DNA of 64,000 bases from NCBI RefSeq assembly GCF_044324875.1, contig NZ_CP172188.1. One strand, 5' to 3'. Both the position numbers and the translations under genes were made by a program. How positions within the stretch are numbered: the first letter of the stretch is position 1; each line of letters begins with the position of its first letter. Below, piece by piece: positions 38,282 to 55,814 of the stretch. The notes below the pieces were generated by a model. The model was given only the letters and a program-made list of their open reading frames with translations, had not been told where the DNA came from and searched no databases. This DNA is from Escherichia coli. Its GTDB lineage: Bacteria; Pseudomonadota; Gammaproteobacteria; Enterobacterales; Enterobacteriaceae.

Positions 38282-38296
38282 CGCTGGAGGCGCAGA

Positions 38297-39004: not shown

Positions 39005-39007
39005 AAA

Positions 39008-39026: not shown

Positions 39027-39034
39027 AACAGTAA

Positions 39035-40033
39035 TTAACTAACAATCCAGTCCATAGCAATAACATCCTCTGGAGCTAAATCAATAGCATGGATTTTCCC
39101 GTCACGGATGGTGCGCCAGTGCTTTCGTGATCCACCTTCGGGCCATACCCATACACCTTCAGGCCAGGAAGAACGACGACACACTGTTGCGTATCCAGTC
39201 CTGATCTTCTCTCTGACGGTATGCAGTGACAGATTATCTTTTGGGATTTCCGGTAAAGGATGATGGATTGCCTGAAACAGCCCCATCTTCGGATGATACC
39301 AGCGTTTGTTGCGTGGTTCTGCCTCCGACATAACCTGCTTGAAGGCTTTCCGGAAGGGGGCCAGGGCCACAATGGAGCGTCGGGCAAGCAAACCATCTGG
39401 AGTTAAAAACTCATGCGTATCGGTGGGAATCCGGTAAGCGTTGACAAGGTTGCGGCATTTGGCTTCAGTCAGGCCACATTTCGCCGCCAGCTGGCGGTAG
39501 CCAATGTAGCCTTCCGGCATATTGCCTTTCTTGATTTGCTCGACGGTTTCAGCGACTTTGGACACTTGTGCCGATACCTCGGCTACCTGGGCATTTACGG
39601 CGTTAATCCGGCGTTCATGTTCAAGATGCATTTGCGCCATTTCAGCCAGGATTTCGGCTTTTGATTTTAGCGGTGAGTGCTCCGGTATTAATTGCTTAAT
39701 ACGAAAATAGCTGTTTACCAGCTCACGTTGCACTTGCCAGGCCAGATCGTCATTGAATGACTTAACAATCATTAGATAACCGGACTCAGTGAACACGCGC
39801 AAACCGCGCGGGGGGACATTAATTCCAAAAGTGTCAAAAACGCCCTTTTCAGAGTAATCAATAAGATAGGTATCTACACCATCAACAAAACGGTGCTTGT
39901 TACGATGGAAAGTTGTTTTAGCTAATCCTTTTGGTCGCTCGTGCACCTCATCAATCATCTCAAAGGTCACTACACGCTGATTTTTATATTCGAGAGTCGG
40001 GAATGGTTTGTTATTGATAGTTACTGCGTCCAT
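39035..40033 (-). CDS. ant: antirepressor (Ant), copy 3, with a different N-terminal domain
   Basis: C-terminal ~200 aa near-identical to copy 1; N-terminal 130 aa unrelated to Rha (KilA-N/ORF6N-like); ATG 40033 overlaps the icd stop. Confidence 0.8.
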   Translation of the reverse strand: MDAVTINNKPFPTLEYKNQRVVTFEMIDEVHERPKGLAKTTFHRNKHRFVDGVDTYLIDYSEKGVFDTFGINVPPRGLRVFTESGYLMIVKSFNDDLAWQVQRELVNSYFRIKQLIPEHSPLKSKAEILAEMAQMHLEHERRINAVNAQVAEVSAQVSKVAETVEQIKKGNMPEGYIGYRQLAAKCGLTEAKCRNLVNAYRIPTDTHEFLTPDGLLARRSIVALAPFRKAFKQVMSEAEPRNKRWYHPKMGLFQAIHHPLPEIPKDNLSLHTVREKIRTGYATVCRRSSWPEGVWVWPEGGSRKHWRTIRDGKIHAIDLAPEDVIAMDWIVS

Positions 40034-40248
40034 TAATGCACCTCCACGCAGTTCATTGGGCGGTTCCAGTAGGTCAAAACGTCCAGGGCATCGAGTTTGA
40101 AGCGAGCCGCAAAAATGCACGGATCTGTAGGAAGAAATGAACGCGCTTCAGCCTCAGTAGCTGCCATTACGGTGATATAGGTGTGTTTTGTGCAGGAATA
40201 AAAGCGCCAGATGAATTCTGGACGTGAGCAAGGATTGGCATTAACCAT
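40033..40248 (-). CDS. icd: Icd-like protein, module 3
   Basis: Paralog (MVNANPCSRPEFIWRFYSC...CVEVH). Confidence 0.7.
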   Translation of the reverse strand: MVNANPCSRPEFIWRFYSCTKHTYITVMAATEAEARSFLPTDPCIFAARFKLDALDVLTYWNRPMNCVEVH

Positions 40249-40299
40249 AGTTACGGCCTCATGTACAGGTTTAACAACCTGCTACCCGCTGTCAAACAG

Positions 40300-40390
40300 G
40301 TGGCAGGGCGTGACAGGGTTGACAGACTGGCGTACATGAAACCAGCAGGCCGAAGCCTCCCCATCACGCCCCACCATAATTCGGGCGTAA
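40300..40390 (-). ncRNA. c4-like antisense RNA region of immunity module 3 (boundaries approximate)
   Basis: Paralogous to 30020..30110, with the pairing element changed to ctgtcaa and both target sites changed to ttgacag. Confidence 0.45.
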
Positions 40391-40561
40391 CGTGGTTTAC
40401 GGACACAAAAATACCGCAATATCGGAAATCTGCGGATGTCCGCATGTACATTCAGGCTGTCAAACCTGGTCGCAGAATTTGCTACGACGGCGTGAATATA
40501 AGCCTGAACATCTGGAAGATCAACATCAAATTGTTGATGATTTATTTTATTATTCATGTTT

Positions 40562-40592
40562 GAAAATTCAAATTATTTTTCTAACACAATAC
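40562..40592. promoter_or_regulatory. operator-like motif upstream of immunity module 3
   Basis: gaaaattcaaattatttttctaacacaatac; inverted copy of the module 2 site. Confidence 0.4.
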
Positions 40593-40699
40593 GAAAGGGA
40601 GTGAAAATTATTCTCCAGCGTTAACCCAAACAAAATTATGTGTGCTGGAGGGTTGCTCATTTCCCGTCAGCACCCACGCCCTCAACGATAGCGGGTAGG

Positions 40700-41005
40700 G
40701 AAGGAAGCGCAATTTTGAGGGCATTTTTTACATCATCAATCCATATGTAATGAAGGCATTCTTTACACATTTCAATAATATCAATCAGTTAGCACAGTGA
40801 ATGATAATAAAAAAGCGCAATAAGAATGCACGATACGCACGATATTGGTTGAGGGTAATTTTTACATAATCCTTATATATCAATATGTTATATAAAAACA
40901 CAACTTACCAATAACAAGATACATGCAATTAAGATGTAAAAATTGCCCTCAATTGCCGATCGTTAAGGGCAAATTCTACACCTTGAGAGGGGTGTAAAAA
41001 TTGCC
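40700..41005. repeat. iteron cluster plus AT-rich region downstream of repA (incC-like)
   Basis: Copies of the TGAGGGCAA(T)TTTTACA iteron in both orientations (about 40713, 40842, 40937, 40961, 40987) around an AT-rich stretch. Confidence 0.6.
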
Positions 41006-41006
41006 C

Positions 41007-41762
41007 TTAAGACTGCTGATAGGTAAATTTTATCCTGGTAACTTTGCCGCCTTCCGTCACCTCTGAGAAGACTATTTTCATTTTTGTATTTTTTTCAATC
41101 TCTGCTACAGCCTTCGTTAAAAAACTTCTCTTAAATTCGGCATACCGCTGATAGCTTTTTGGTAACCCATAACGCTCCCGCATCCATTCGACGCCAAGTA
41201 TGGCAAAGCCGCTTCCATCATCCTTCCTGTACTGGCATAAGGACTCATAAAGCCGCATAGAATAAGGATTTGTAAGGCGAGATACTTCGGTAAAATTCAG
41301 CCTTGTGAATCTCTTATCAAGCAGAGTAAAAAACGGCATGAGATATGGATTAAGATGAATAATGTAAGTCCCACGCCGTGGTGAATAGGCATCCTTAATC
41401 ATCCAAGGATAAGACTCATAACTGTCTTCTGATTCGGTCGATTCATCAGGGTTATATATCGTAACTTTCTTCTCGCTAAGACCTGAAATGGCCTTACGAA
41501 TATCCTTGCTGGCTTCAGCAGAGGGCAAATTATACATCTCTGCATATTCGTTGACCGTCAACTCACAGGCACCTGAACCAAGAACGCCATCCTTAGAAGC
41601 ATAGCGAAGCCTTCCCACCACAATAAACAACAGTCGCTTTTGGTCGCGAGTCAGGTGATAAGCAGCCTCCGTGATCTCATTGGCTTGTGCCAAACTACGA
41701 CTAATAGGTGTCGCTGACTCAATCAGGCTGACGGCTTTTGCTGTTAATTCCGCTCTGTTCAT
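41007..41762 (-). CDS. repA: RepE(F)-like plasmid replication initiator
   Basis: Collinear with F-plasmid RepE as recalled (EAAYHLTRDQKRLLF..., EASKDIRKAI, NPYLMPFF, RLNFTEVSRLTNPYSMRLYESLCQYRK); likely start ATG 41762 gives 251 aa. Confidence 0.8.
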   Translation of the reverse strand: MNRAELTAKAVSLIESATPISRSLAQANEITEAAYHLTRDQKRLLFIVVGRLRYASKDGVLGSGACELTVNEYAEMYNLPSAEASKDIRKAISGLSEKKVTIYNPDESTESEDSYESYPWMIKDAYSPRRGTYIIHLNPYLMPFFTLLDKRFTRLNFTEVSRLTNPYSMRLYESLCQYRKDDGSGFAILGVEWMRERYGLPKSYQRYAEFKRSFLTKAVAEIEKNTKMKIVFSEVTEGGKVTRIKFTYQQS

Positions 41763-41783
41763 AACCCTGTGTGATCCTTCAAA

Positions 41784-41910
41784 TGGTGAGGGCAATTTTT
41801 ACATCACTTTGAGGGCAATTACTACACCTTTTGAGGGCAAATCTTACACCTTCTGAGGGCAAATCTTACACCGATCGTATCTAATTGAGGGCAAATCTTA
41901 CACCAGACTC
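41784..41910. repeat. five direct iterons upstream of repA (origin / autoregulation)
   Basis: Direct repeats of about 22-24 bp (ttgagggcaa(a)tcttacacc) at 41784, 41808, 41832, 41856, 41886; one inverted copy near 42027. Confidence 0.7.
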
Positions 41911-42150
41911 CTCTACAGCCCGCGCCACTACTGGCTCCAGCGACGCCTAAAAAGGATCTAAAAAGGATTAAAAATGGAAAAAGGTTTATAAAAATACTCT
42001 GTGGATATGTGAGTAGCGTCACTTAAGGTGTAAAAATCACCCTCAATAATCGCTTCTCGACCGGCAAAGATCTTCATTCAATCCCCATCGCAAATCACAC
42101 ACTCCCTATCCTCTGGAAAATGAACAGATACCTGCTTTTCGGAGGAATAA

Positions 42151-42972
42151 TTGAACATTCCAAAATTTCCATTGCCTTCCCGTCCTGAGACAGAAATTCA
42201 GTTCCACGCCCCTACCGTGAAGGATGCGCTGAAATATTCTGACCTGAACCCGGCAGAAGATGAGGCAACTACTACAGAGTACCTTAACTCGATGCAGGAT
42301 GGTGAAATTAACGACAGTGCTAACTGGACAGTTCAGGATCGCAGAACTGCTCTTTGGTGGATATTTGTTAATTCGCGCCCCGATGCAGTAATGACCTACT
42401 CCTATGAGTGCAGTCACTGCGGTAATACGCATCATGCAGATATTAACCTAAGCGACCTGGCCCAAACAGTAGAAATACTCACTGTACCTCCTTACGTGAA
42501 AACCAACGTACCAGTAAATGGAGTACCAACTAACTGGATACTTAAACCATTAACCGGGAAAGGCGCGGAACTCCTTGAACGAATGCGAGCGTCACTTCCT
42601 GATATGAAAAGCCCCGAATACAGTGCTGGCGTGGCACGGATGCGGATTGCTGAACTCGCTTTATGCACGGCGCTTGAAGACGATCCGGAGGACTTCACGC
42701 AGGCCGCTAACCGACGCTTTGACATCATTGAAAGCATGGCGCTTGAAACCGAATTTACACCGCTTGTGGCTCGCATACAGCTTATGCAAAAAGACCTACG
42801 CCACGGCCTGAAGATGTCTATTGAGAGAGGCAAAAGCCGCCTGATCCTGCCTCCGCAACATTGCAAAAACGCTAAGGAGGGTGCAGACGTGACTACCACG
42901 CTGTACGTCACCTTTCACAATAGAGAGTTTATCCCATCAATTAGATCTGAATGGATGGCTAACCATTATTAA
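42151..42972 (+). CDS. hypothetical protein (273 aa) with Cys/His cluster
   Basis: TTG start with GGAGG RBS; CSHCGNTHH motif. Confidence 0.45.
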   Translation: MNIPKFPLPSRPETEIQFHAPTVKDALKYSDLNPAEDEATTTEYLNSMQDGEINDSANWTVQDRRTALWWIFVNSRPDAVMTYSYECSHCGNTHHADINLSDLAQTVEILTVPPYVKTNVPVNGVPTNWILKPLTGKGAELLERMRASLPDMKSPEYSAGVARMRIAELALCTALEDDPEDFTQAANRRFDIIESMALETEFTPLVARIQLMQKDLRHGLKMSIERGKSRLILPPQHCKNAKEGADVTTTLYVTFHNREFIPSIRSEWMANHY

Positions 42973-43026
42973 CAACCTGACTCTGTATGGATATCAGCCC
43001 GTTAGTGACGTTGAACAATTGCCACA

Positions 43027-46000
43027 ATGGCGAGCACTCCATATGTCAAAAGCCCTAGAAGAAAAATACAAAGCTCAAGCCGGGAAACGTTGATCGCCGC
43101 TGGCAAAAGAGAGGTTATTTTGAAAGAGAATAAAGACCGTATCGCAATAATTGACGCTATTCAGGGGGCGAGCACAAACGAACTTAAGGCTCTTGCTGAG
43201 ATCAAAGACGCCATTCTCTCTGGTAGAGGGTCTATAACTCAACTTGGTGAAAATCAAGGTAAAGTAAGTCAAAGACTATCCCGTAGACGCATAGCAAGCG
43301 AACCCTATGTCTCTGGTGATGCCAAGAATACCCAAGCTAACCCATATATAAAACGCCTTCCGATGAAAAAAGGGAGGACGCAGGTCAACAACGGAGAAGA
43401 ACGTCTCATTGTTGCAACCAACACATCAGAGCGCGTTCATTTTGCGTCATCACGCCAGTCCGCCCAAAAGTTGAAAGGTTCTGTGCCAGTAGCCGCTAAT
43501 TCTGCTCCTCTTGAACCACAATCCCCCCAAAGCCAAAAAGGACCGCTTCGGGATAGTAATGGACGCTTTGTATCCCAGAAAAACAACGAAGATATAGCCA
43601 GAAAAAAAGAATGGCAGAACGCACGTAAGGCCGACGCCAAACTACAAGAAGGCTTCCTCCGGAAATTAGGCTCCATTATAGGGGTAGATGGCAATCAGTC
43701 TTCCAGTGAAGAGTCTTTAACAGATGCCGCAGGTGTCGGCGCTGGTGGTCCGTTGTGGATGGCTGCTCGCGGCATGTACGACATTACTAAAGAGATCACA
43801 GGTAAAGCAGAATCTCTTAAAGAATGGGTAGAAAAGGGGAAAGGTGAGGCTTTATCTTCGAAAGCGACATCACCAGCTATCACTTATCCGGCGGTGGTGA
43901 ATACTCAAAAAGCAACCTCTGCAACAGCATTTAATAATGCTGTTGAGACAAAATCAGCACAAGCAGTAGAAGAGCAAACAAAAATTCTTCAGACCAATGA
44001 CAACAAAATAATTGATGGTCTGGAAAATGTCTCCGACGAAGTAGTTAAGCTACGCAAATCAGTATCTTCTGGGAATAAGTTCGGCTTAAGTGATCTCTGG
44101 AGAAATCGAGCAAGCAGAAGAAATAAAATCAATATTGGCGATCAGGCTGGTAAAAATAAACGGAACAAACCGAAAAGGAAAGGTCGCAATCTGGGGAAAA
44201 ATGCCCTTTCTGTTGGTGAAAAAGCCGCTGCCGGAACCGCTGCTGCTGGAGCTGGTGCCGGAGCTGCAAAGACTGTTAAAACAAAGGTTAGTAAAGCCAA
44301 AGACATCAGCACCACAAGCGACGCATCTAAGGGTATTGCTAAAGAAACAAAAAACACAGCAAAGGCAGTTAAGCCAGCAGGTGTTGTTGCCGAAGAGGCC
44401 ACAATTAAAACAGGTGAAACTGTTGCAAAGAAAAAAACCGAATCCGTAGCCCTCAAAAGTGCTGCAAAAATAGGTGTTAAATCAGCTGCTTCTACAGCTG
44501 CAAGAGCTATCCCGATCATCGGATCGCTGGCTATGGCGGGATATGACGCTATAGATGGTTACACTGATACAGATGCGCAAAAGGCAGCCTTTGGATTAAG
44601 TGACGATGATGCTGTATCCGAACAGCAAAAAACGGCTTACGCAACAGCTAATGTGCTCGATATGGGGGGCTTGGTGTCGGGCGCAACGAACTTGATAGGG
44701 AAAGGAATTTCTGCGCTAGGATTTGAAAGAGCAGGTGAAAAACTTCAGAATTTTGATACCGGAGATATTGCTCGTGGTGTTAACGGCGCGGTAGATATCA
44801 CCAAATCTGTTTTTGGTAACCTTAAGGATACATTTTTATCCACTGACGAAAACACGAAACAAGTAAAAAAAGCTGTTGAAGACGGCACAAAAAAAACTGT
44901 CGATGCGATTCATTCTCTTGGTGAACAATTACAAGGTGGGCGTAATGGCGAGGATGGAGTTGGTGAGCACGGGTATACTTCTCCAACTGAATTTAGTGCA
45001 CCTGCCAACAACACCATTGCAGCGGATCTGAATATTGGCGGCAGCAACGCTAAAAACCGCAATTACCGAAATAATAATCTCGGCAATCTTGTTTTTGCCA
45101 ACCAGGAAGGGGCGACGCTGGAATCGCCAAATGCAAAAGGTGAACAACGTTTTGCGCGATTTAACACACCTGAAGAAGGGATCAGGGCACTGGCAAACCA
45201 GGTTTCCAGCTATTACAACGGCACCAGTGCCGCAGCGGGATATCAGAAGTTACAGACGGTATCCAGCATCATTTCAAAATGGGCACCGCCAAATGAGAAC
45301 AATACTAACCAATATATTGATAACGTCAGTAAATATCTTGGTGTATCGCCTAATGAAAAAATAGATGTCAGCAAACCAGAAGTTATGACGCAATTAGTTC
45401 GTGCAATTGCGACGAAAGAAGGCGGAAATCCGGCAGTTAATAATGAGTTCATTAAGAACGCACTTGGAGCATTTAACACAAACACTGGTCGATGGGAGGG
45501 ACAATTCTCTGACGAAACATTGGCGCGGATTAATAAAATTCAGAAAGAAAATGGTGGTCAGCTAATTGCCCGCGATTCGCAATATAGTGTTGGTCGCAAG
45601 GTAAAATATGCTAATGGAAAATCTCCAGCTCAACCAGTTTTGAATGCCGTTCCGACAGCAACACAACAGCCAATTGAGGTTGCACAACATGCCCAGGCAG
45701 TCAAAAAGCCACAAAAAACAGGTAACCAACCACAACCGATTAATCCAGAGAACGCTGATGTTAATACCGGCTCTCCATCGAGTTTGCTTGAGCGGTTAAT
45801 CACAATAAATGAAAGCGGAATCAGTGGTGCAAGTAATTTATTTGGCGGCGCGGCTACCAGCCTTGCTGGAACAAGTCTGGACCTGGTAAAGGATTTTGCG
45901 TTAGCTACTTCGTTTGGTTCTATATCTTCGCTTTCCGAAAAAGCGAAAGGAATGGATCAGGCTCTTACTGAAAAGATATCCAGCTTAACCGGTAAATCTT

Positions 46001-47091
46001 TTGGATTTAAAAAAGCTTCTCAAGTGGCTGATATCGCAACAGCCATACAACAAAAACGCACTGTTAATCACGATACAGAAATCATTGATCTACTTCCGGG
46101 AGATCAAGTATCCCCTTCTACTCCGAAAACTCCACAGCAGGAGCAGGCTCTGGCAATCAACCAGGCTATGGAGGGCTTTTCGTCTGCAGCGCCAGCACCG
46201 AAAACCCCACAGCAGGAGCAGGCTCTGGCAATCAGCCAGGCTATGGCGGGCTTTTCGTCTGCAGCGCCAGCACCGAAAACCCCACAGCAGGAGCAGGCTC
46301 TGGCAATCAACCCGGCTATGGAGGGCTTTTCGTCTGCAGCGCCAGCACCGAAAACCCCACAGCAGGAGCAGGCTCTGGCAATCAGCCAGGCTATGGCGGG
46401 CTTTTCGTCTGCAGCGCCAGTAGTTACCTCTGGAAAACGAACTATCACGGCACCAAGTGATGTGCAGATTTATGACAACGGCTACAAGGTGGTTACAGGT
46501 GAGGATAAGAGCTTCTTTGGTTCGCTATTTGATTCCACGGTGTCAGGGCTTAAACAGACAGGAACCGCAGTAATTCCTGCCGTTGGCGATAACCTTTCAC
46601 GACTTGTTGGGGGGATTGATAGTACAGGGATATTGAACGATCTTGTAATGCAGTCTACTGGGCAGAATAGTGCGATTGCGCGAGCTATTAGCCCATTAAC
46701 AAGAAATGTTGGAGACTGGTTGAATGGGGGGATTCAACAAACCGCTAATAGCATTAGGGGAATAGCAACTGGTGCCAATAACGCCATATTTGGCTCTGCT
46801 TCAGCTGTGCAAGAACCTTTTCTTGCTATGCCGCCACAACTCCCTACTGTAACCGATCTCGCACGAAGCGGAATAAGACAACCATTAACTACTGACACTA
46901 TAAATAACGATCCTGCTATGTTGAAGGCGCTGGATAACATCTGCTCTATCCTGAACGATCTGCTGAATGTGAACAAGAACAATACAAAAGGCGATCCGGA
47001 TAATGTTGTCAAAACATCGCAGCCGCAGCCGCGACCACGTGCGAGCACAACTATTAATGACCAGTCGCTGGATGCTCTGCTTGAGGATTAA
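43027..47091 (+). CDS. large virion protein (1354 aa), Sit/tape-measure-like
   Basis: Very long ORF directly upstream of baseplate genes; Lys/Ala-rich N-terminal third; internal 25-aa tandem repeats. Confidence 0.55.
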   Translation: MASTPYVKSPRRKIQSSSRETLIAAGKREVILKENKDRIAIIDAIQGASTNELKALAEIKDAILSGRGSITQLGENQGKVSQRLSRRRIASEPYVSGDAKNTQANPYIKRLPMKKGRTQVNNGEERLIVATNTSERVHFASSRQSAQKLKGSVPVAANSAPLEPQSPQSQKGPLRDSNGRFVSQKNNEDIARKKEWQNARKADAKLQEGFLRKLGSIIGVDGNQSSSEESLTDAAGVGAGGPLWMAARGMYDITKEITGKAESLKEWVEKGKGEALSSKATSPAITYPAVVNTQKATSATAFNNAVETKSAQAVEEQTKILQTNDNKIIDGLENVSDEVVKLRKSVSSGNKFGLSDLWRNRASRRNKINIGDQAGKNKRNKPKRKGRNLGKNALSVGEKAAAGTAAAGAGAGAAKTVKTKVSKAKDISTTSDASKGIAKETKNTAKAVKPAGVVAEEATIKTGETVAKKKTESVALKSAAKIGVKSAASTAARAIPIIGSLAMAGYDAIDGYTDTDAQKAAFGLSDDDAVSEQQKTAYATANVLDMGGLVSGATNLIGKGISALGFERAGEKLQNFDTGDIARGVNGAVDITKSVFGNLKDTFLSTDENTKQVKKAVEDGTKKTVDAIHSLGEQLQGGRNGEDGVGEHGYTSPTEFSAPANNTIAADLNIGGSNAKNRNYRNNNLGNLVFANQEGATLESPNAKGEQRFARFNTPEEGIRALANQVSSYYNGTSAAAGYQKLQTVSSIISKWAPPNENNTNQYIDNVSKYLGVSPNEKIDVSKPEVMTQLVRAIATKEGGNPAVNNEFIKNALGAFNTNTGRWEGQFSDETLARINKIQKENGGQLIARDSQYSVGRKVKYANGKSPAQPVLNAVPTATQQPIEVAQHAQAVKKPQKTGNQPQPINPENADVNTGSPSSLLERLITINESGISGASNLFGGAATSLAGTSLDLVKDFALATSFGSISSLSEKAKGMDQALTEKISSLTGKSFGFKKASQVADIATAIQQKRTVNHDTEIIDLLPGDQVSPSTPKTPQQEQALAINQAMEGFSSAAPAPKTPQQEQALAISQAMAGFSSAAPAPKTPQQEQALAINPAMEGFSSAAPAPKTPQQEQALAISQAMAGFSSAAPVVTSGKRTITAPSDVQIYDNGYKVVTGEDKSFFGSLFDSTVSGLKQTGTAVIPAVGDNLSRLVGGIDSTGILNDLVMQSTGQNSAIARAISPLTRNVGDWLNGGIQQTANSIRGIATGANNAIFGSASAVQEPFLAMPPQLPTVTDLARSGIRQPLTTDTINNDPAMLKALDNICSILNDLLNVNKNNTKGDPDNVVKTSQPQPRPRASTTINDQSLDALLED
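46125..46430 (+). repeat. four tandem 75-bp coding repeats (PAPKTPQQEQALAI-N/S-QAM-E/A-GFSSAA)
   Basis: Near-identical 75-bp units in tandem within the 1354-aa gene. Confidence 0.8.
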
Positions 47092-47096
47092 TACTG

Positions 47097-47471
47097 ATGC
47101 TTTACGAAATAGACGCAAGACTTCAAACGAATGAGAGCGGTGTCATTATTGCAGAAGGAAGTACCGCAGCATGGATGGCCCGACTTGACGAGTGGCTACG
47201 AACCCCTGAAGGGAGTGTTTATGGTTTACCCTCTTGGGGGAGTCCAATGGAAGAATTTAAGCATGAACCATTCGGCTCTGAAACTTCGCACATAGTTGAA
47301 GTGGCTATTGAAGGGAGAATGATGAAAAAACTACGACAAGACTTGCCAGGTTTGGATGTGCAGGGGATTCGTTGCACATCAATTTCTGAAGATTCTTTAT
47401 TAATTAGTTTTTATGCGAAAGGTGGGAGCATGGATATTGTTATGCAGAAATCAAGTGGGGTGGGCGCGTGA
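47097..47471 (+). CDS. baseplate protein (gpW/gp25-like candidate)
   Basis: About 124 aa, immediately after the large virion protein; assignment by size and position. Confidence 0.4.
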   Translation: MLYEIDARLQTNESGVIIAEGSTAAWMARLDEWLRTPEGSVYGLPSWGSPMEEFKHEPFGSETSHIVEVAIEGRMMKKLRQDLPGLDVQGIRCTSISEDSLLISFYAKGGSMDIVMQKSSGVGA

Positions 47472-48898
47472 CGATTACAGAATTACTGGACAAATTTAAC
47501 GCTAAGTTAAATGAAAACACATGGTGGTCACGATTTGTAAATAGTCAGTTTGTGCAGATGCACGCTATATTCGGATCACAGCTTATTTATATTGCCCGTA
47601 CATTTGCAAGCCGCGGCCTCACTGAGGGACTTATTTCAACGGCTACGCGCCGCTCAAGTATTTTAGCGGTTGCTGAAGACCGTAGCTACGTAGGGCGATT
47701 TGTTAGTGCTTCATACGGAACAACGTCTATAACCAATAAAACTGATCGGGATATTACATTACCAGCCGGGGCTGAATTGCTTGCCAATGACCAAACACCT
47801 TTGGCAATTATTAACAGTGTTGTAATTCCTGCTGGAGGAACTGTTTCTGGCGTAGAAACTAAACAGCATGAAGCTGTTAGCGTTACATTTGATATTGAGA
47901 AGGAAACTTTATTTCTGACATTGTTGCTTTCCAGAGAGTTAACAAAAGAAGTCTCTAGCCTGGATGTTTATGTTATTACAGATGGCGTAGAAGAAAAATG
48001 GACATATAACCCATTATTTAGAATGTCCAGAGACAAGAGTAAGCACTATTCATTGGCATATAAACCTACAGAACAACTTGGAGTCAAGTTTGGTGATGGT
48101 TCTATGGGTATGATGCCTCCAGCAGGCTGTCAGGTTCGAATCGATGTTATGGCTAGCCTTGGCGACTATACTTTGGCTGAAGGACAAAAGTTAGAACCGG
48201 CTGGAAATATCGCTCAATATGTGGAGTCACTTGAGTTTAAAACTGATTCGATCATTACCGGTGGTAGTGGTATGGAAACTACAGAAGAAACTCGAAATCG
48301 TGCTCAGTATTATGTTGCATACGATGAACAAGTGGTATGGGGCGGTGATTATCGCCAATTCATTCAGAATGTTGTTCATGGAACTTCATGGTTGAACGTT
48401 TGGGGCGAAGCGTTACAAGAGAAAATAACTGGGTTTGACGTTCGAAACATCAACAAAATTTTCTTTTGCGGACATAAGCCGGGTGTAAGCCAGGCTCAGC
48501 TAAAATCAGAAATACTGAAAGCTCTAGAGAATGTTCCAAATGAGTTGAACAAGCGGTTCGAGTATGTAGATACAAATGAACAGCCATTTACTATAAATTT
48601 TACAGGTATTGCACGTAAAAATGTTCTGATAGACGACGCTCAAAATGCTATTAAAGCAGCATTGGAAGATAATTTTGGTCGTGATTCGTCATCATTTAGT
48701 TTATTACTACAGAGTGATGATGATTCTCAGCAATGTTATGCACAGGTAAAAGTTAAAGATATTTGGCGAGTAATAGAATCGCTGGATATGTTTCTCTCTT
48801 ATGACATAACAATACAAAATATGAAAGATGCAGTTTACTTTAATGACTTCATTTATCTTGACGTGAAATCTTCCACGTTCAGCATTTCTTACCCGTAA
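47468..48898 (+). CDS. baseplate protein (gpJ-like candidate)
   Basis: 476 aa; GTG start overlaps the upstream stop; position in the baseplate block. Confidence 0.45.
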   Translation: MTITELLDKFNAKLNENTWWSRFVNSQFVQMHAIFGSQLIYIARTFASRGLTEGLISTATRRSSILAVAEDRSYVGRFVSASYGTTSITNKTDRDITLPAGAELLANDQTPLAIINSVVIPAGGTVSGVETKQHEAVSVTFDIEKETLFLTLLLSRELTKEVSSLDVYVITDGVEEKWTYNPLFRMSRDKSKHYSLAYKPTEQLGVKFGDGSMGMMPPAGCQVRIDVMASLGDYTLAEGQKLEPAGNIAQYVESLEFKTDSIITGGSGMETTEETRNRAQYYVAYDEQVVWGGDYRQFIQNVVHGTSWLNVWGEALQEKITGFDVRNINKIFFCGHKPGVSQAQLKSEILKALENVPNELNKRFEYVDTNEQPFTINFTGIARKNVLIDDAQNAIKAALEDNFGRDSSSFSLLLQSDDDSQQCYAQVKVKDIWRVIESLDMFLSYDITIQNMKDAVYFNDFIYLDVKSSTFSISYP

Positions 48899-48908
48899 TG
48901 AGGTTAGC

Positions 48909-49754
48909 ATGAAAGATAATTGGCTTAAGGAACGATTAACTAAAGTAAAGCAGGATTCACATCTCTGGAGTGCCTTTATAGACGCTTTACAGGATGTCTG
49001 GAATGAGGCAGTAGAACCAATATTAACAAGAATAAGTAACAGAAAATCCTTCTTCACTATGGACAGTGAGGATATGGATGCCCGCATTGCTGAATACGGG
49101 CGTTTTTTCGTTATCACTGAAAAAGATAATGCCCGTAGGCCAATGCTTCTGGCGCAGCGTTTAGATGAAGTGCACTTTAAAGGTACTATCTTGCCTATTG
49201 AGCAGACATTCTGGCGTGAATTCGGTTGTATTCCTGTTAGTTGGGAACCGCTGTATGCACCTGTAAATATAGAAAAACACCCCTATGGTTCATATTTTGC
49301 GACCGAAATAGAAATACCTACGGCACAGGCTCAATTCGGTGAGTTCTTCCTGACATCAAGGGGGCTGGTCGTTGTTGATCAGAACAAGCTATATCGCTCA
49401 TATGGAGAGCAGGATAAAGAAGCCGCTGTGCAGAAATTGTTATCTGACTTCGAAACAGTAATAGCCCCTTTGTTGCCATTGCATATTGTTTTTGATGGCG
49501 TCTCGTTTCGGCTTAGTGCTGTATTCCCTGAAGTGGCAGAAATACTAAATTGCCTGTCTACGGATGTTTCGGTAATTGAAGGTGTTTATGTTACTGAGAG
49601 TATGGCTGATATGCTATCCCGTAGTGATACCTCCTGCCAGGTAAACAATATTTCTCTTAACGCCATACCGAACAGAACGGCAGAAAAGCAATTACATCTT
49701 GATGTAACCCCACTCGATGCGTGGCCTTTGGATTACCACCTTCAACCTGTTTAA
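48909..49754 (+). CDS. baseplate/tail-fiber-proximal protein (281 aa)
   Basis: GAGG RBS; position between the J-like gene and the tail fiber. Confidence 0.4.
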   Translation: MKDNWLKERLTKVKQDSHLWSAFIDALQDVWNEAVEPILTRISNRKSFFTMDSEDMDARIAEYGRFFVITEKDNARRPMLLAQRLDEVHFKGTILPIEQTFWREFGCIPVSWEPLYAPVNIEKHPYGSYFATEIEIPTAQAQFGEFFLTSRGLVVVDQNKLYRSYGEQDKEAAVQKLLSDFETVIAPLLPLHIVFDGVSFRLSAVFPEVAEILNCLSTDVSVIEGVYVTESMADMLSRSDTSCQVNNISLNAIPNRTAEKQLHLDVTPLDAWPLDYHLQPV

Positions 49755-49848
49755 TAATTCTTCCCCCAAATGCGGGGGAAGAACAACGGAAATCACAAAC
49801 TGAGCATACTCTCCTTTGGTTCATTGCTTATGAAGGGGCTATGTTCGT

Positions 49849-50295
49849 ATGGCTGAAAATTTAAAGGCAAGAGATGGTAACCGCCTGTATAAGGCGCAAT
49901 TGCTTTCCTACTATTATTCACGCCGCGCTGAGTCGGCGATCGGCAAAGGTGCGCGTTTTGTTATCTCTAAGGCGTATTGGTGCAAATCTAGTCTGGTAAC
50001 TGCTAATGGTGCAGGAGGCTGGAATATAGCGGACATTCCACTCGATTTTAAATTGAGTAACGCTCAACAGTTTGCTGTGTCCGATCTGATATTGTCCAGT
50101 GTGGATGGGATTATCACTATCAATGCAGCCTTCCCTCAAGAAAGAATGCCGGATAACACGCCTTACGACTTTAACACGCTTGTGCTTGTGGATGCTGAGG
50201 AACAGGCTTTTGCTGTGCTTTGCACCCAGCAAGACACCCTCTATAAAGGTAAACGTTACAGTATTCTCATGACAATCGAGCAAGTTGAGGGTTGA
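49849..50295 (+). CDS. phage tail protein (148 aa)
   Basis: ORF directly upstream of and overlapping the tail fiber gene start. Confidence 0.4.
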   Translation: MAENLKARDGNRLYKAQLLSYYYSRRAESAIGKGARFVISKAYWCKSSLVTANGAGGWNIADIPLDFKLSNAQQFAVSDLILSSVDGIITINAAFPQERMPDNTPYDFNTLVLVDAEEQAFAVLCTQQDTLYKGKRYSILMTIEQVEG

Positions 50296-50297
50296 TT

Positions 50298-53180
50298 ATG
50301 GGTGCTGATAAAACGAACAACATAATGACACTATCCTCTGGTGTCTCACAGCCGTTGCTTGCTGATGTTCAATATTTCGAACTCTATAGTAGTTCGGCTC
50401 TTAACAGAAAACTTAAAAATATTGTTTTGCCGGGCTTTTACTGTGGATTTGAACCGGTTCCCGGCACAGGGTTGAGTGTCCGTATAACTTCTGAAAACTC
50501 AGAAGGTAAAGGGGCTGCTTCAGTAGATGTAAATAATGTTCAGATATCCGTTCAGCAAATAGAAGATGTGACTGTCTCGGTAAAGGCAGGGGCTACCAAC
50601 ATTATTGTGCTGGAAGCCAATTTTGAACATGGTGTAAAAACGACACAGGTAGATAGCGCATCTTCTGTCAGTGCTGCAAGAATTTACGCGCGTACGGACA
50701 ATACTATTGGGCAGAATCAAATTGAATTATGTCGAGTTATCGTGCCTAGCGGCGCAACGGCTGTGACTAAAGAAATGATTGTGCTTAAATACCGGGTTAA
50801 CCGTGCTGTTGGTGTCGAATTCTCTAATGAAATAAGCAGTACAGAAGAAAGAAAAGCGGCTACACCTCTGGCTGTCAAAACTCTCCATGATTTGGTTGAT
50901 ACAAAAGCCCCGATCAACAGCCCGAATCTGACAGGAACGCCAACAACACCAACAGCGCCACAGGGGACTAATAATACCCAGATCGCAAGCACGGCTTTCG
51001 TTATGGCCGCGATTGCCGCACTTGTAGATTCGTCACCTGATGCACTTAACACTCTGAACGAACTGGCCGCCGCGCTTGGTAATGATCCGAACTTTTCCGC
51101 GACAGTGACTCGCCTGATTGGAGAAAAAGTTGCCAAAGATGGCGACACCATGACAGGTAAACTTAATCTGCCGCAGACCTCTGCATTCGGCATCAATACC
51201 AACAACAGACTGGGGGGGAACTCTCTGACGCTGGGCGATCACGATACCGGAATTAAACAGGAAGGAGACGGCGTATTGTCCGTGTTCGCCAACGGCCAGC
51301 GTGTGTTCCTTTTCACGGAAAGAAGTATTACCTCATTAAAAGAGCTTCTGATAGGGGATGCACGTTATAGCACCGGTGGTGATGTGTATGGCAGTCAGTG
51401 GGGAGACGGTTGGTTGAGTTCCTGGTTAAGTGCTCGCTTTGCAGAGTGTGCCAACGCCAGCCATAACCACCCTTGGAGCCAGATTACCGACGTACCAGCA
51501 GCCAGCCTCACTCAGAGCGGCATTGTACAACTTAGTAGTGCCATCAACAGCACTTCTGAAACATTAGCTGCAACTCCAAAAGCGGTTAAAGCTGCATACG
51601 ATCTAGCAGCCGGAAAGGCACCATCCAGTCATACACACCCCTGGAATCAGATCACTGGTGTGCCAACAGCTTCATTGACAGCGAAAGGCATCACTCAGCT
51701 CAGTAGTGCTACTAACAGCACGTCTGAAGTGCTGGCCGCCACACCAAAAGCTGTCAAGGCTGCATATGACCTGGCTAACGGGAAGTATACAGCCCAGGAT
51801 GCAACCACGACACAAAAAGGGATAGTTCAGCTCAGTAGCGACACCAACAGCACTTCTGAAACATTAGCTGCAACTCCAAAAGCGGTTAAAGCTGCATACG
51901 ATCTAGCAGCCGGAAAGGCACCATCCAGTCATACACACCCCTGGAATCAGATCACTGGTGTGCCAACAGCTTCATTGACAGCGAAAGGCATCACTCAGCT
52001 CAGTAGTGCTACTAACAGCACGTCTGAAGTGCTGGCCGCTACACCGAAAGCGGTTAAAGCTGCATACGATCTAGCAGCCGGAAAGGCACCATCCAATCAT
52101 ATACATCCCTGGAATCAGATCACTGGTGTGCCAACAGCTTCATTGACAGCGAAAGGCATCACTCAGCTCAGTAGTGCCACTAACAGCACGTCTGAAGTGC
52201 TGGCCGCTACACCGAAAGCGGTTAAAGCTGCATACGATCTAGCAGCCGGAAAGGCACCATCCAGTCATACACACCCCTGGAATCAGATCACTGGTGTGCC
52301 AACAGCTTCATTGACAGCGAAAGGCATCACTCAGCTCAGTAGTGCTACTAACAGCACGTCTGAAGTGCTGGCCGCTACACCGAAAGCGGTTAAAGCTGCA
52401 TACGATCTAGCAGCCGGAAAGGCACCATCCAATCATATACATCCCTGGAATCAGATCACTGGTGTGCCAACAGCTTCATTGACAGCGAAAGGCATCACTC
52501 AGCTCAGTAGTGCCACTAACAGCACGTCTGAAGTGCTGGCCGCTACACCGAAAGCGGTTAAAGCTGCATACGATCTAGCAGCCGGAAAGGCACCATCCAA
52601 TCATATACATCCCTGGAATCAGATCACTGGTGTGCCAACAGCTTCATTGACAGCGAAAGGCATCACTCAGCTCAGTAGTGCCACTAACAGCACGTCTGAA
52701 GTGCTGGCCGCTACACCGAAAGCTGTCAAGGCTGCATACGATCTGGCAAACGGAAAACAACCGGCAGATGCCACGCTCACTGCTCTGGCAGGACTTGCCA
52801 CTGCAGCAGATCGGTTGCCTTATTTTACCGGAGCAGACCGCGCAGCGCTGACAACCCTTACAGCTATTGGTCGCGCTATTATCGCTAAGGGCAGTATAAA
52901 AGATGTCCTCAATTACCTTGGTTTAGGAGAAGGCTCGGCGCTACCCGTTGGTGTGCCTGTTCCATGGCCCACCGCCACACCGCCAGCAGGCTGGTTAAAG
53001 TGCGACGGGCGCGCCTTTACAAAAGAACAATATCCTGTTCTGGCCAGAGTCTACCCGACCCTCCGTCTTCCCGATTTACGCGGTGAGTTTATCCGTGGAT
53101 GGGACGACGGGCGAAAAGTTGATACAGGGCGCGATTGCTTTCACGGCAAGGGGTACAAGTTTTTCTCATTACGGAGGTAA
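50298..53180 (+). CDS. tail fiber protein (S-like) ending inside the invertible-region repeat
   Basis: Tandem fiber repeats (ATPKAVKAAYDLA, HTHPWNQITGVPTASLT) and the conserved C-terminal junction PAGWLKCDGRAFTKEQYPVLAR...LRGEFIRGWDDGR. Confidence 0.85.
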   Translation: MGADKTNNIMTLSSGVSQPLLADVQYFELYSSSALNRKLKNIVLPGFYCGFEPVPGTGLSVRITSENSEGKGAASVDVNNVQISVQQIEDVTVSVKAGATNIIVLEANFEHGVKTTQVDSASSVSAARIYARTDNTIGQNQIELCRVIVPSGATAVTKEMIVLKYRVNRAVGVEFSNEISSTEERKAATPLAVKTLHDLVDTKAPINSPNLTGTPTTPTAPQGTNNTQIASTAFVMAAIAALVDSSPDALNTLNELAAALGNDPNFSATVTRLIGEKVAKDGDTMTGKLNLPQTSAFGINTNNRLGGNSLTLGDHDTGIKQEGDGVLSVFANGQRVFLFTERSITSLKELLIGDARYSTGGDVYGSQWGDGWLSSWLSARFAECANASHNHPWSQITDVPAASLTQSGIVQLSSAINSTSETLAATPKAVKAAYDLAAGKAPSSHTHPWNQITGVPTASLTAKGITQLSSATNSTSEVLAATPKAVKAAYDLANGKYTAQDATTTQKGIVQLSSDTNSTSETLAATPKAVKAAYDLAAGKAPSSHTHPWNQITGVPTASLTAKGITQLSSATNSTSEVLAATPKAVKAAYDLAAGKAPSNHIHPWNQITGVPTASLTAKGITQLSSATNSTSEVLAATPKAVKAAYDLAAGKAPSSHTHPWNQITGVPTASLTAKGITQLSSATNSTSEVLAATPKAVKAAYDLAAGKAPSNHIHPWNQITGVPTASLTAKGITQLSSATNSTSEVLAATPKAVKAAYDLAAGKAPSNHIHPWNQITGVPTASLTAKGITQLSSATNSTSEVLAATPKAVKAAYDLANGKQPADATLTALAGLATAADRLPYFTGADRAALTTLTAIGRAIIAKGSIKDVLNYLGLGEGSALPVGVPVPWPTATPPAGWLKCDGRAFTKEQYPVLARVYPTLRLPDLRGEFIRGWDDGRKVDTGRDCFHGKGYKFFSLRR
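51460..52750 (+). repeat. about seven tandem ~165-bp coding repeats inside the tail fiber gene
   Basis: Near-identical 55-aa units repeated; several DNA copies identical over more than 100 bp. Confidence 0.8.
52911..52933. promoter_or_regulatory. candidate invertase crossover site (cix/gix-like), left
   Basis: aattaccttGGTTTAGGAGAAgg at the outer edge of the left inverted repeat; mirrored at 54945..54970. Confidence 0.45.
52920..53133. repeat. left inverted repeat of the invertible region (~215 bp, ~98% identical to 54746..54960)
   Basis: Hand reverse-complement comparison shows only about four mismatches. Confidence 0.8.
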
Positions 53181-53334
53181 TTTCGACATTGGGTCTGGTT
53201 ATTCAATCAATAACTACGACCAATAGTTGTTTCTAACAACCAAGATTTTCCCGACCTTCATGAGGGCCTTTAACGAGGTGATGGGGTTAACATGTAACCA
53301 TTCGTCCTGGTAACATTGTTTAATTATATGGTAT

Positions 53335-53560
53335 GCAGGCTATAAACGTTGGTTTAGGAGAAGCGGCGCTATGCGTTGGTGTGCCTGTTCAGTGGCCCCC
53401 GCCACACCGCCATTGCAGGCTTAATTAAATTGTGAGGGCGCGTTTACAAAAGAACAATATCAGTTCTGGCCAGAAAACCCGACCCTCCGCTTCCCGATTT
53501 AGCGGTGCGATATCCGTGGATCACTATGACGAGACGAAAGGTTGATACACGGGCGTGCCT
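53335..53560. repeat. degenerate third copy of the inverted repeat with its own crossover-like site (plus orientation)
   Basis: About 80-85% identity to 52920..53133 with indels; begins ctataaacgttggtttaggagaag. Confidence 0.55.
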
Positions 53561-54239
53561 CTTTGGAGTTTCGCCCTTGGGACTATCGTATCCGGTTTTG
53601 ATGCGCCGATGCATACCGGAGATTTCAGGTTACGTGGTCGGCTGCCACACAAACGGATGGTGACGCATTTAACCTGATCACCTGGGGGTATAAATGGCAA
53701 AAAGTGGATATTTGATGCATCCCAACCGGTGCACAAAGATATGACTGGCGGACTTACCACCAGCAAAACAGCCTGCCACAATATGGGATTTAACTATATC
53801 GTGAAGGCGGCGTATACCGTTACTGAACGGCATAGAGCCGCAGTGGCGCTGGCCAGCTGCAACGCCAGAAACCTTGTGATATCCAGGCGTTCAGCTCGTC
53901 GATATAATCCAGCACGGCGGGCAGTTTTGCCGTTTCTTCCAGTTTCAGACTGCGACCTGCCCGCCGTTTGGGTTGATAGGTCGACGGCTTCACGCCTGGA
54001 TCCACCCGGCACTGGCGTTGCAGTTGGCAAGTCTCCAGCTCTGCGGCTCTATGCCGGCTCAGTATCACGCCGCCCACGATTACCGTTCCAGGTATCCCAT
54101 GGTGTGGCAGGCTGTTTTGTGGTGGTGTCCGCCGGTAATCACCCGGTTGAGGTGCATCAGAACGGGGTTCCCGTTTTCCGTTTATACCGTCTCCCGCGGT
54201 GATTAGGGTTACATGCGTCCCAAATCCGTTCAGTGTGGC

Positions 54240-54480
54240 AGTCCGAAACCACGTAACCCGATATCCTCCGGTATGCATTATCATCACGAACCGGAGTACG
54301 ATAGTCCCAAGGGCGAGATACTGAAAGTAGCGCACGCCCGGTATCAACCTTTCGTCCGTCATATCCACGGATAAACTCACCGCGTAAATCGGGAAGACGG
54401 ATCGGTTAGACTCTGGCCAGAACAGGATATTGTTCTTTTGTAAACGCGCCCTCACAATGTAACCAGCCTGCTACGGCGGT
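54240..54480. repeat. degenerate fourth copy of the repeat (minus orientation), inverted partner of 53335..53560
   Basis: Reverse complement aligns to the 53335..53660 copy, including gcccttgggactatcgta. Confidence 0.5.
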
Positions 54481-54564
54481 GTGACGGTGATACCCTTCGC
54501 ATACAGGCTTCTGATAGAGGTCAGAATAGTAGCCTGCATACCATTGTCTGACATTACCACGATG

Positions 54565-54960
54565 TTACGAGGATCGCTGAATGTTGTCCCGTCCGGCATT
54601 TTGAAGGCCCTCACGAAGGTCTGTAATGGAATCTTCATTGTTGAATCCCATGCCGACTATCCCCGAGGTTCCCGTAGTGTCCTGGTTATAATAATCCAGC
54701 ATTGCTGTTCTTAACAGCGTTGCCCCTTGTGCGGACAGCAACTTACGTCCTGTATCAACTTTGCGCCCGTCGTCCCATCCACGGATAAACTCACCGCGTA
54801 AATCGGGAAGACGGAGGGTCGGGTAGGCTCTGGCCAGAACAGGATATTGTTCTTTTGTAAAGGCGCGCCCGTCGCACTTTAACCAGCCTGCTGGCGGTGT
54901 GGCGGTGGGCCACGGAACAGGCACACCAACGGGTAGCGCCGAGCCTTCTCCTAAACCAAC
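54565..54960 (-). CDS. alternative tail-fiber C-terminal cassette (start-less; joined to the fiber gene only after inversion)
   Basis: Minus-strand frame encodes the same PVPWPTATPPAGWLKCDGR...RGWDDGRKVDTGR junction followed by a different 57-aa tail. Confidence 0.5.
   Translation of the reverse strand, partial: VGLGEGSALPVGVPVPWPTATPPAGWLKCDGRAFTKEQYPVLARAYPTLRLPDLRGEFIRGWDDGRKVDTGRKLLSAQGATLLRTAMLDYYNQDTTGTSGIVGMGFNNEDSITDLREGLQNAGRDNIQRSS
54746..54960. repeat. right inverted repeat of the invertible region
   Basis: Reverse complement matches 52920..53133. Confidence 0.8.
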
Positions 54961-54970
54961 GTTTATCTCT
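54945..54970. promoter_or_regulatory. candidate invertase crossover site, right
   Basis: ccTTCTCCTAAACCaacgtttatctc adjacent to the invertase gene. Confidence 0.45.
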
Positions 54971-55025
54971 CAAATCCTCCCCACATTATCTCAGTACTTT
55001 AACCACTCAAAAGGGAGTATTTTTA

Positions 55026-55598
55026 ATGCTGATTGGCTACATACGTGTGTCAACAAATGACCAAAACACAGATTTGCAACGCAATGCATTAATGTGCGCA
55101 GGATGTGAACAGATTTTTGAGGACAAAATGAGCGGAACCAAGTCGGAACGACCAGGCCTGAAACGCGCTTTAAAGTGCCTTAAAAGAGGGGATACATTGG
55201 TGGTCTGGAAGCTGGATCGGTTGGGTAGAAGAATGAAACACCTCATTGCTCTCACAGAAGAGCTACGCGCAAAAGGTGTCAATTTTCGCAGTCTGACGGA
55301 TTCAATCGATACCAGCACTCCGATGGGAAGGTTCTTTTTTCATATGATGGGTGCACTGGCAGAAATGGAGCGTGAACTGATAGTTGAGCGCACGCTGGCA
55401 GGACTGGCTGCTGCGCGATCACAAGGAAGAGTTGGAGGACGTCGCCCGAAACTGACGAAGGAGCAGCATGAGCAGATCGCAAGATTGCTCCAGAAAGGGT
55501 ATGACAGAAAGCGGCTGGCAATTATCTATGATATTGGACTGTCAACGATCTACCGCTATCACCCTGTTGGGACTGTCATAACGCAACCTGAAATGTAA
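55026..55598 (+). CDS. cin: Cin/Gin/Hin-family serine DNA invertase
   Basis: MLIGYIRVSTNDQNTDLQRNAL...LVVWKLDRLGR...FRSLTDSIDTS collinear with Mu Gin as recalled; ATG 55026 (ORF track 54897 extends into the repeat). Confidence 0.9.
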   Translation: MLIGYIRVSTNDQNTDLQRNALMCAGCEQIFEDKMSGTKSERPGLKRALKCLKRGDTLVVWKLDRLGRRMKHLIALTEELRAKGVNFRSLTDSIDTSTPMGRFFFHMMGALAEMERELIVERTLAGLAAARSQGRVGGRRPKLTKEQHEQIARLLQKGYDRKRLAIIYDIGLSTIYRYHPVGTVITQPEM

Positions 55599-55814
55599 TT
55601 CTTTTTCAAATAATGAAACGCCGCGTGGATGCCATTTATCGCACAAGATAGAGTGCATTTATCGCGCGGCGCATCATCATTTGTTGATATGCGAATGTAT
55701 CCAATAAGCATATGTCTCCCTTGTATGCTAAGGATACGATCCTAGAAGATGTCCTGTAAGGAAATAACAAACTGACTAAGTTAGTGGCGCATTAGATGTT
55801 ATTTCTGGAGGGGT

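Follow-up and report, generated by a model that had tools for sequence, protein, structure and literature searches.

A probably active three-site tail-fibre switch in a D6-like phage-plasmid of Escherichia coli, its apparent decay likely a chimeric consensus of inversion isomers

Described fibre switches and the D6-like locus

The closest described counterparts of the locus analysed here are the C segment of phage P1 with its invertase Cin, the G-segment of phage Mu with Gin, and the Min system of p15B. P1 carries a pair of crossover sites together with two large Sv/U pairs (4.2 kb), and its cixL site overlaps the 3' end of cin. Mu is likewise a two-site system, with two S/U pairs, and its gin gene adjoins the G-segment and reads away from it. 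The p15B region, 3.5 kb long, has six sites and can adopt very many isomers. Among D6-like plasmids, the inversion region is the most variable part (PMC6799933). Long-read assembly and polishing are also documented to run into difficulty at multiple-inversion regions, and the one in P. koreensis P19E3 had to be resolved manually (PMC6158609).

The stretch of E. coli DNA that we analysed (hereafter the window; 64 kb) is 95–99% identical to phage D6 and to E. coli D6-like plasmids of ∼ 92 kb and, by these sequence matches, is a phage D6/P1-like phage-plasmid. Outside the damaged stretch described below, it differs from the nearest plasmid by approximately two gaps per 8 kb. Its gene order is that of P1, with bplA-16-R-S followed by the invertible segment (C segment), the invertase gene (cin) and the lydA/B holin genes. 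The locus further shares with P1 an invertase that is 72% identical to Cin and 26-bp crossover sites with a TT core. Unlike P1, it has three sites, three short collar-type tips and a single tail-fibre assembly gene (tfa), and the site nearest the invertase gene (site C) lies upstream of that gene, which reads away from the segment. Mu Gin is the closest homologue with a solved structure (3UJ3, 4M6F), and in both systems a constant part (Sc) is joined to alternative C-termini, although the tips found here come from a different (collar-domain) family. The locus can also be likened, without direct sequence comparison, to the Min system of p15B, with which it shares more than two sites, several cassettes and multiple isomers, the numbers here being three sites and four isomers. 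As in P19E3, the consensus is poor only in the multiple-inversion region and the rest of the replicon is clean; however, P19E3 carries an Rci-type shufflon, whereas the present locus is a Gin/Cin-type fibre switch known from its consensus alone.

Invertase, crossover sites and cassettes as deposited

The invertase gene (55026–55598, plus strand) is intact, encodes 190 aa and is transcribed away from the segment, in agreement with the initial annotation, which had placed a Gin/Cin-type invertase beside the fibre region. Its product matches phrog_125 (DNA invertase), differs from the JJ1886 copy by a single amino acid and aligns over residues 1–181 to the Mu Gin structures 3UJ3 and 4M6F (E ∼ 1e-93), as well as to gamma-delta resolvase. 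The N-terminus (MLIGYIRVSTNDQ) carries the catalytic domain of serine recombinases, including the active-site Ser within a Y-x-R-V-S-T motif, and residues 139–184, the C-terminal helix-turn-helix, match the DNA-binding domain of Hin (1HCR; E 1e-10). At the offset where the Fis-dependent recombinational enhancer is annotated in the 5' part of P1 cin, 54 of 72 nt are identical, partly owing to coding conservation. Downstream of the gene lies what remains of a second invertase gene, its first 12 codons (MLIGYIRISTND; 55677–55711, minus strand, within ORF 55559–55711 and inverted repeat I7), in the orientation opposite to the intact gene. Identity with the ST131 module stops at ∼ 55675, at this remnant. 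A fragment similar to the remnant is also present in LT905089.

The segment is bounded by a 217-nt inverted repeat, recovered in an inverted-repeat search, whose arms (52915–53131, plus strand, and 54746–54962, minus strand) are 98% complementary. Three 26-bp sites have the expected layout of two 12-bp half-sites around a 2-bp TT/AA core: the cix-like site A (52906–52931, plus strand; TCCTCAATTACC TT GGTTTAGGAGAA), the internal site B (53337–53362, plus strand; AGGCTATAAACG TT GGTTTAGGAGAA), for which relatives have a site at the equivalent place, and site C (54946–54971, minus strand; TTCTCCTAAACC AA CGTTTATCTCTC), which is inverted relative to A and B. The inner half-site GGTTTAGGAGAA shares 11 of 12 positions with GGTTTAAGAGAA of P1 cixL/cixR, which also have a TT core. 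Thus, a near-perfect inverted repeat by the invertase and crossover-like sites at its outer edges, at 52920 (plus) and 54946 (minus), both reported in the initial annotation, are indeed there. The two inner degenerate copies of the repeat, in opposite orientations, are present as well (∼ 53351–53560, plus strand, and ∼ 54322–54490, minus strand), but instead of the four or more potential crossover sites proposed earlier we found three exact cix-like copies (52920, 53351 and 54946, the last on the minus strand) and no fourth at up to two mismatches. The minus-strand degenerate copy carries no crossover site; at its position intact relatives have only the 5' end of tfa, and its content matches what flipping would bring there, either arm B in isomer 3 or arm C in isomer 4. 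Judging from these matches, we take the supposed fourth 'site', like the second degenerate copy, to be very probably a ghost of flipped isomers.

The constant part of the fibre gene (Sc; 50292–52919, plus strand) extends to the crossover dinucleotide within site A, and the ATG at 50298 corresponds to the start annotated in relatives. As deposited, the fibre ORF (50292–53180) stops 16 codons beyond the repeat because of a 1-nt deletion at ∼ 53136 in cassette A (52920–53343, plus strand), which in the alignment with JJ1886 is clean to ∼ 53135 and garbled beyond. The left arm of the repeat codes for the start of tip A, which is conserved and lies in the collar domain; the homologous tip C matches Pfam Collar (PF07484). 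The window copy of tip A aligns to its intact counterpart at 62% amino acid identity, with gaps. Cassette B (53351–53815, plus strand) is heavily garbled, with 36% amino acid identity to intact B, and its first ∼ 200 nt are a mixture of the B arm and the flipped C arm (isomer 2). The garbled tfa (53821–54440, minus strand) retains 44–50% amino acid identity in two frames, and its 5' ∼ 120 nt are overwritten by the ghost of a flipped cassette arm (54322–54445). Cassette C (54441–54957, minus strand) is 99% identical to intact C over its first 117 codons (54957 to ∼ 54607) and is garbled thereafter; its ORF stops at 54565, ∼ 60 codons beyond the repeat, because of a 6-nt insert (∼ 54564–54569) that is the flipped A cassette in register. 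The earlier observations of short fibre ORFs past the repeat and of no intact tfa therefore hold for the sequence as deposited, and none of the features confirmed here, from the repeats to the intact invertase gene, is a chance occurrence.

Other D6-like plasmids, as well as ST131 chromosomes, carry intact versions of the 3-kb module, in which it comprises three collar-domain tips (143, 154 and 171 aa from the crossover for A, B and C, respectively), one tfa (204 aa; phrog_105) and the invertase, all of which recur at 95–100% amino acid identity. PHROGs and Pfam gave families for these products, and NCBIfam had none for the tips or tfa. The initial annotation had named intact cassettes emerging after error correction as evidence against its own reading; such evidence is now available indirectly, in the form of intact A, B and C and an intact tfa in sister plasmids. 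Relatives have three or four cassettes, NZ_CP115379 having four sites and four tips. In JJ1886 the surroundings of the module are a truncated P2-like remnant, and the fibre gene is partial. The S. Typhi plasmid LT905089, considered as a second instance of the same garbling, was rejected, being an intact two-cassette variant. Complete records contain the module as isomer 1 (JJ1886), isomer 3 (NZ_CP028585) and isomer 4 (NZ_OY754373 and NZ_MN101855); the same module occurs in different isomers, so it does invert in nature.

A mosaic confined to the invertible interior

Positions 52700–55675 are collinear with the JJ1886/ST131 module. In 100-nt steps, identity to JJ1886 is 94–100% in the left flank, 57–90% with dense 1–8-nt indels over 53200–54500, and 99–100% over 54600–55675. 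Frameshifts and stops are limited to the invertible interior, while the invertase gene, sites and arms are untouched; between 53,135 and 54,575 identity drops to ∼ 74% with approximately one indel per 30 nt. The interior contains 45 gap events in 1416 nt and has a transition to transversion ratio of 167:180 (0.93), compared with 124:62 and two gap events in 8185 nt for natural divergence in the same window. Mismatch rates by base are 16% for A, 23% for C, 20% for G and 23% for T. Compared with its reverse complement, the interior shows 60% identity, against 37.5% for that of intact JJ1886, which makes it a quasi-palindrome. Its nested inverted repeats are all centred on ∼ 53,940, halfway between the outer arms.

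At 80% of the positions where the window differs from its intact parent, its base agrees in register with that of the flipped parent (44–50% for decoys). It contains 97 in-register 10-mers that are private to the flipped isomer, against a mean of 2.6 over 70 out-of-register shifts. With NZ_CP115379 as the plasmid parent, exact in-register 9-mers drawn from the four isomers predicted for it cover 1294 of the 1600 nt of the interior (81%); isomer 1 alone covers 972 nt, and decoy isomers add none. Banded mosaic dynamic programming (switch penalty 3) improved on a single parent by +63, compared with +18 for decoys, and as this gain is only modest we relied on the exact in-register k-mer tests instead. 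The mosaic alignment still leaves ∼ 146 mismatches and ∼ 160 gap positions that no isomer explains, some of which could be real divergence, since the true parent of the plasmid is absent from the databases. We also simulated a 10:10 mix of reads (8% error) of isomers 1 and 3 with a toy majority consensus (MAFFT plus column majority) that stands in for the unknown real pipeline. Identity was 73.5% in the simulated consensus and 73.8% in the deposited one, with 310 against 295 mismatches and 46 against 49 gap events; flipped 10-mers numbered 25, fewer than the 97 observed.

Origin and meaning of the mosaic

We consider it highly probable that this is an ordinary fibre switch with three sites, probably active, and that its apparent decay is a chimeric consensus of co-existing isomers. 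The Gin/Cin-family serine invertase would recombine sites A (plus), B (plus) and C (minus), the first of which ends Sc, to give four isomers with Sc fused to one of three short collar-domain tips, the only tfa standing after tip C. Reads from at least two co-existing isomers, chiefly isomer 1 and isomer 3 (the flip of the whole segment) and, in traces, isomers 2 and 4, would then have been assembled or polished onto one backbone, and the frameshifts, stops, extra minus-strand copy and 'nested' symmetry at ∼ 53,135–54,575 would be the property of no DNA molecule. The anatomy, the homologies, the mosaic make-up and its confinement to the invertible interior are observed; the origin of the mosaic in consensus building is inferred, and with it the activity of the invertase in the sequenced culture. 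Inversion of the segment has indirect support, from the records of isomers 1, 3 and 4 and from the isomer fragments in the window. The earlier reading of a multi-site (Min-like) inversion region for fibre C-termini with a Gin/Cin-family invertase is thus retained, with three sites and three tips.

The same reading had taken the switch to be eroding, or its tips to be tiny. All three cassettes and tfa are disrupted as deposited, and prophage fibre modules do decay, as the JJ1886 copy in its truncated P2-like remnant illustrates; nevertheless, we regard as quite unlikely that the sequence is real and that cassettes and tfa were pseudogenized because host-range switching was no longer needed. Such decay would have to confine ∼ 26% divergence to the interior, between flanks 99–100% identical to loci with intact cassettes, and to spare the invertase, sites and arms. 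The mutation spectrum is not a natural one, with an indel every ∼ 30 nt and Ts:Tv of ∼ 1 against approximately one indel per 4 kb and 2:1 in real divergence, and neutral decay cannot create the in-register fragments of flipped isomers that largely explain the damage. Among the records searched, no lineage has the decayed version: there was no match to the interior above ∼ 80% identity in 5,426 E. coli genomes or 72,556 plasmids, four garbled ORF products had no exact match in the gene-position index, and neither IMG/VR nor the GTDB representative genomes contained a 33-mer taken from the garbled sequence.

A chimera could also come from cross-mapping of two paralogous copies of the module in one genome, for example one on a D6-like plasmid and one in an ST131-type chromosomal remnant. 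Between the plasmid and ST131 chromosomal modules, the arms, the invertase gene and the 80 nt that follow are 99–100% identical, and a full-length homologue is present in 434 E. coli genomes, in many of them at several places. We hold this to be very unlikely, as the plasmid-type NZ_CP115379 explains the window better than the chromosomal JJ1886 in both forward (972 versus 832 nt) and flipped (376 versus 322 nt) tiling, and the main signal, a flip of the entire segment exactly in register, is what inversion at one locus predicts.

It is highly improbable that the deposited mosaic exists as DNA. In that event the fibre segment would have been broken up in vivo, for example by repeated abortive invertase or template-switch events, into pieces of both its strands that stay in register, and this would be an undescribed way for switches to die. 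Quasi-palindromic structure and the standing of fibre tips as classic diversification targets fit aberrant recombination, template switching between inverted cassettes or hypermutation (e.g. by a diversity-generating retroelement, DGR), but a scrambled molecule of this origin is extremely improbable given 10–80-nt blocks with junction indels, no homology guiding the exchange and frameshifts that destroy every reading frame. DGR-type hypermutation was rejected on the lack of adenine bias and the many indels, and we know of no precedent for in vivo scrambling of this sort.

Accepting a chimeric consensus of co-existing isomers as the likely origin of the mosaic, the deposited consensus of invertible regions can evidently mimic pseudogenes, extra repeats and nested sites, and such chimeras mislead automated scans and prompt the annotation of fibre genes as 'decayed'. 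When reads are unavailable, in-register isomer painting offers a cheap test of artefact versus real decay. The garbling itself is a free indicator that several isomers were present in the sequenced culture, so the switch is probably active, and its biology is that of the standard, already known Cin/Gin-type host-range switch of a D6/P1-like phage-plasmid.

Anatomy of the inversion module and its phage-plasmid setting

The window is part of a D6/P1-like phage-plasmid. Positions 30,000–50,000 are 95–99% identical to phage D6 and to ~90-kb non-mobilisable plasmids of E. coli and Salmonella, and the genes for baseplate protein bplA, gp16, R, the fibre protein S, the invertible segment, the invertase and then holin/lysis functions follow each other as they do around the invertible fibre segment of P1. 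A variable cin-invertible fibre region has already been described in D6-like plasmids (PMC6799933). The icd/ant (immunity) region is apparently present twice in the window, since 39005–40408 and 6949–7618 both match one icd/ORF6N-domain (ant-like) region of NZ_OY754396.1 (one inverted, 93% identity). Staggered 75-nt BLAST self-offsets against a relative mark a short tandem repeat array at 46123–46420, within the large 'transglycosylase' tail gene.

The inverted repeat reported in the initial annotation was confirmed as 217 nt in two opposed arms (52915–53131 and 54746–54962; 98% complementary), and the proposal of multi-site inversion beside a Gin/Cin-type invertase was also right. The intact 190-aa serine invertase (55026–55598) matches Mu Gin structures over residues 1–181 (E ~1e-93) and shares 72% identity with P1 Cin. 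Instead of the at least four crossover sites proposed, we found three: the half-site GGTTTAGGAGAA occurs without mismatch at 52920 (+), 53351 (+) and 54946 (−), and a search allowing up to two mismatches gave no other copy nearby. All three 26-bp sites align with P1 cixL/cixR, sharing the TT core and 11 of the 12 positions of the inner half-site. A putative enhancer would lie where it is annotated within P1 cin; 54 of 72 nt are identical there, in part through coding conservation.

Facing the invertase on the minus strand is a remnant of a second one (55559–55711, especially 55677–55711), its first 12 codons (MLIGYIRISTND); 55677–55711 and the invertase start form a 35-nt inverted repeat (83%). 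Identity to the ST131 chromosomal module ends exactly at this remnant (~55675), and LT905089 carries a longer fragment of this type (59 aa) downstream of its invertase. The fibre shaft (51509–52780; TRF array 51827–52756) holds a 168-nt (56-aa) unit in 5.5 tandem copies at 95% identity, along with a 300-nt higher-order copy. As the fibre ORF has 962 aa here and that of plasmid NZ_OY754396.1, which is 98.5% identical, has 679 aa, the shaft-unit copy number may differ among relatives or be assembly-sensitive.

Intact modules in related genomes

Positions 52,700–55,675 are collinear with a module present in many E. coli genomes, and its interior has a full-length homologue in 434 of them. In the chromosome of JJ1886 (ST131) and in sister D6-like plasmids the module is annotated as three 'phage tail protein' cassettes, one tail-fibre assembly gene (tfa) and a recombinase. 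Counted from the crossover, the alternative tips A, B and C comprise 143, 154 and 171 aa; each opens with a conserved Phage Tail Collar domain, recognised as a repeat in the initial annotation, and closes with ...NYIVRA(A/V). There is only one tfa (204 aa, phrog_105), positioned after tip C.

Sites A(+), B(+) and C(−) allow four isomers, three of which occur in complete records, each with a full set of intact genes at 95–100% amino acid identity. With Sc denoting the constant part of the fibre gene, these are Sc-A, B, tfa reversed, C reversed (isomer 1; JJ1886), Sc-C, tfa, B reversed, A reversed (isomer 3; NZ_CP028585) and Sc-B, tfa reversed, C reversed, A reversed (isomer 4; NZ_OY754373 and NZ_MN101855); NZ_CP115379 carries a fourth cassette. 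Short tips are thus normal for this family, and the occurrence of different isomers indicates that the module inverts in nature.

The three collar-domain tips share one tfa, co-oriented with tip C only (4127–4741 in locus L003 from JJ1886, with homologues in the further intact relatives L001 and L006–L008; window ~53821–54440). Thus, expression of tip A or B would leave no tfa downstream, which suggests that these tips need no tfa for folding or that tfa is transcribed from a promoter of its own. Apart from the garbled interior, the module, comprising the fibre 3' end, both arms, tip C, the invertase and the 80 nt beyond it, is 99–100% identical to the ST131 copy (window 52700–55675 versus NC_022648 1002307–1005282), which sits in a truncated P2-like prophage remnant adjoining aroA-serC. 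Such identity between a D6-like plasmid and a P2-like remnant implies that unrelated phage backbones have recently exchanged the entire switch.

Origin of the garbled interior

Judged from the deposited sequence, the apparent decay of the interior is most likely an artefact, given its sharp locality, unnatural spectrum, quasi-palindromic structure, flipped-isomer fragments, orphan status and plausibility in simulation; with tips of 143–171 aa intact in relatives, the eroding switch with unusually small tips suggested earlier is unsupported. Identity to JJ1886 is 94–100% per 100 nt in the left flank and 99–100% in 54,600–55,675, and drops to 57–90%, with dense 1–8-nt indels, in 53,200–54,500; the rest of the window has ~2 gaps per 8 kb against the nearest plasmid. 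Over 1,416 aligned nt, the interior shows 45 gap events and 167 transitions to 180 transversions, without adenine bias among the mismatches; real divergence in the window has two gap events in 8,185 nt and a transition:transversion ratio of 124:62. The interior is a quasi-palindrome centred midway between the outer repeats: it shares 60% identity with its reverse complement (37.5% in the intact parent), and its nested inverted repeats are all centred at ~53,940.

Flipped isomers largely account for the mismatches. At 80% of the positions at which window and intact parent disagree, the window base equals that of the in-register flipped parent (44–50% for reversed, complemented or shuffled decoys). 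In-register 10-mers private to the whole-segment flip number 97, against a mean of 2.6 over 70 out-of-register shifts. With plasmid NZ_CP115379 as the closest parent, 1,294 of 1,600 interior positions are covered by exact in-register 9-mers of the four predicted isomers, and 972 by those of isomer 1 alone. Decoy isomers added nothing. Penalised mosaic alignment left ~300 mismatch or gap positions unexplained, with a modest gain over decoys; we ascribe these positions to noise in the consensus and a true parent missing from the databases, some real divergence being possible. In principle, the mixing could have drawn on another copy of the module in the chromosome rather than on isomers of one locus, but forward and flipped fragments both fit a plasmid-type parent better, which argues for isomers.

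Both degenerate inner copies noted initially are present. The plus-strand copy (53,351–53,560) reads as a blend of the cassette B arm and the C arm in its flipped state (isomer 2). On the minus strand, the copy at 54,322–54,490 has no counterpart in intact relatives and appears to be a ghost of a flipped isomer, either the isomer 3 B arm or the isomer 4 C arm. The 6-nt insert truncating cassette C is probably the flipped cassette A end, in register.

Searches of 5,426 complete E. coli genomes and 72,556 plasmids found nothing above ~80% identity to the interior; the garbled ORF products were absent from a 153-billion-gene index, and a garbled 33-mer from IMG/VR and the GTDB representatives. 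In a toy simulation, ten 8%-error reads each of isomers 1 and 3 were aligned and reduced to a column-majority consensus. Against isomer 1, the interior of this consensus had 73.5% identity, 310 mismatches and 46 gap events (observed: 73.8%, 295 and 49); a 12:6 mix remained 99% clean. Similar trouble has been documented for multi-inversion regions of long-read assemblies (PMC6158609).

Predicted switching

From family knowledge and the anatomy found in the window, the invertase would pair oppositely oriented sites and invert the DNA between them; in Gin/Cin-type systems this pairing is enhancer-dependent. In the deposited backbone orientation, Sc is fused to tip A. Recombination of A with C would flip the whole 2.03-kb segment, joining Sc to tip C and placing tfa after it, and a further A × B event would fuse Sc to tip B. 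Every inversion would swap the receptor-binding tip and hence change host range. The switch is of a known kind, and the finding is chiefly useful as a warning on data quality and as an indirect sign that the switch was active in the sequenced culture.
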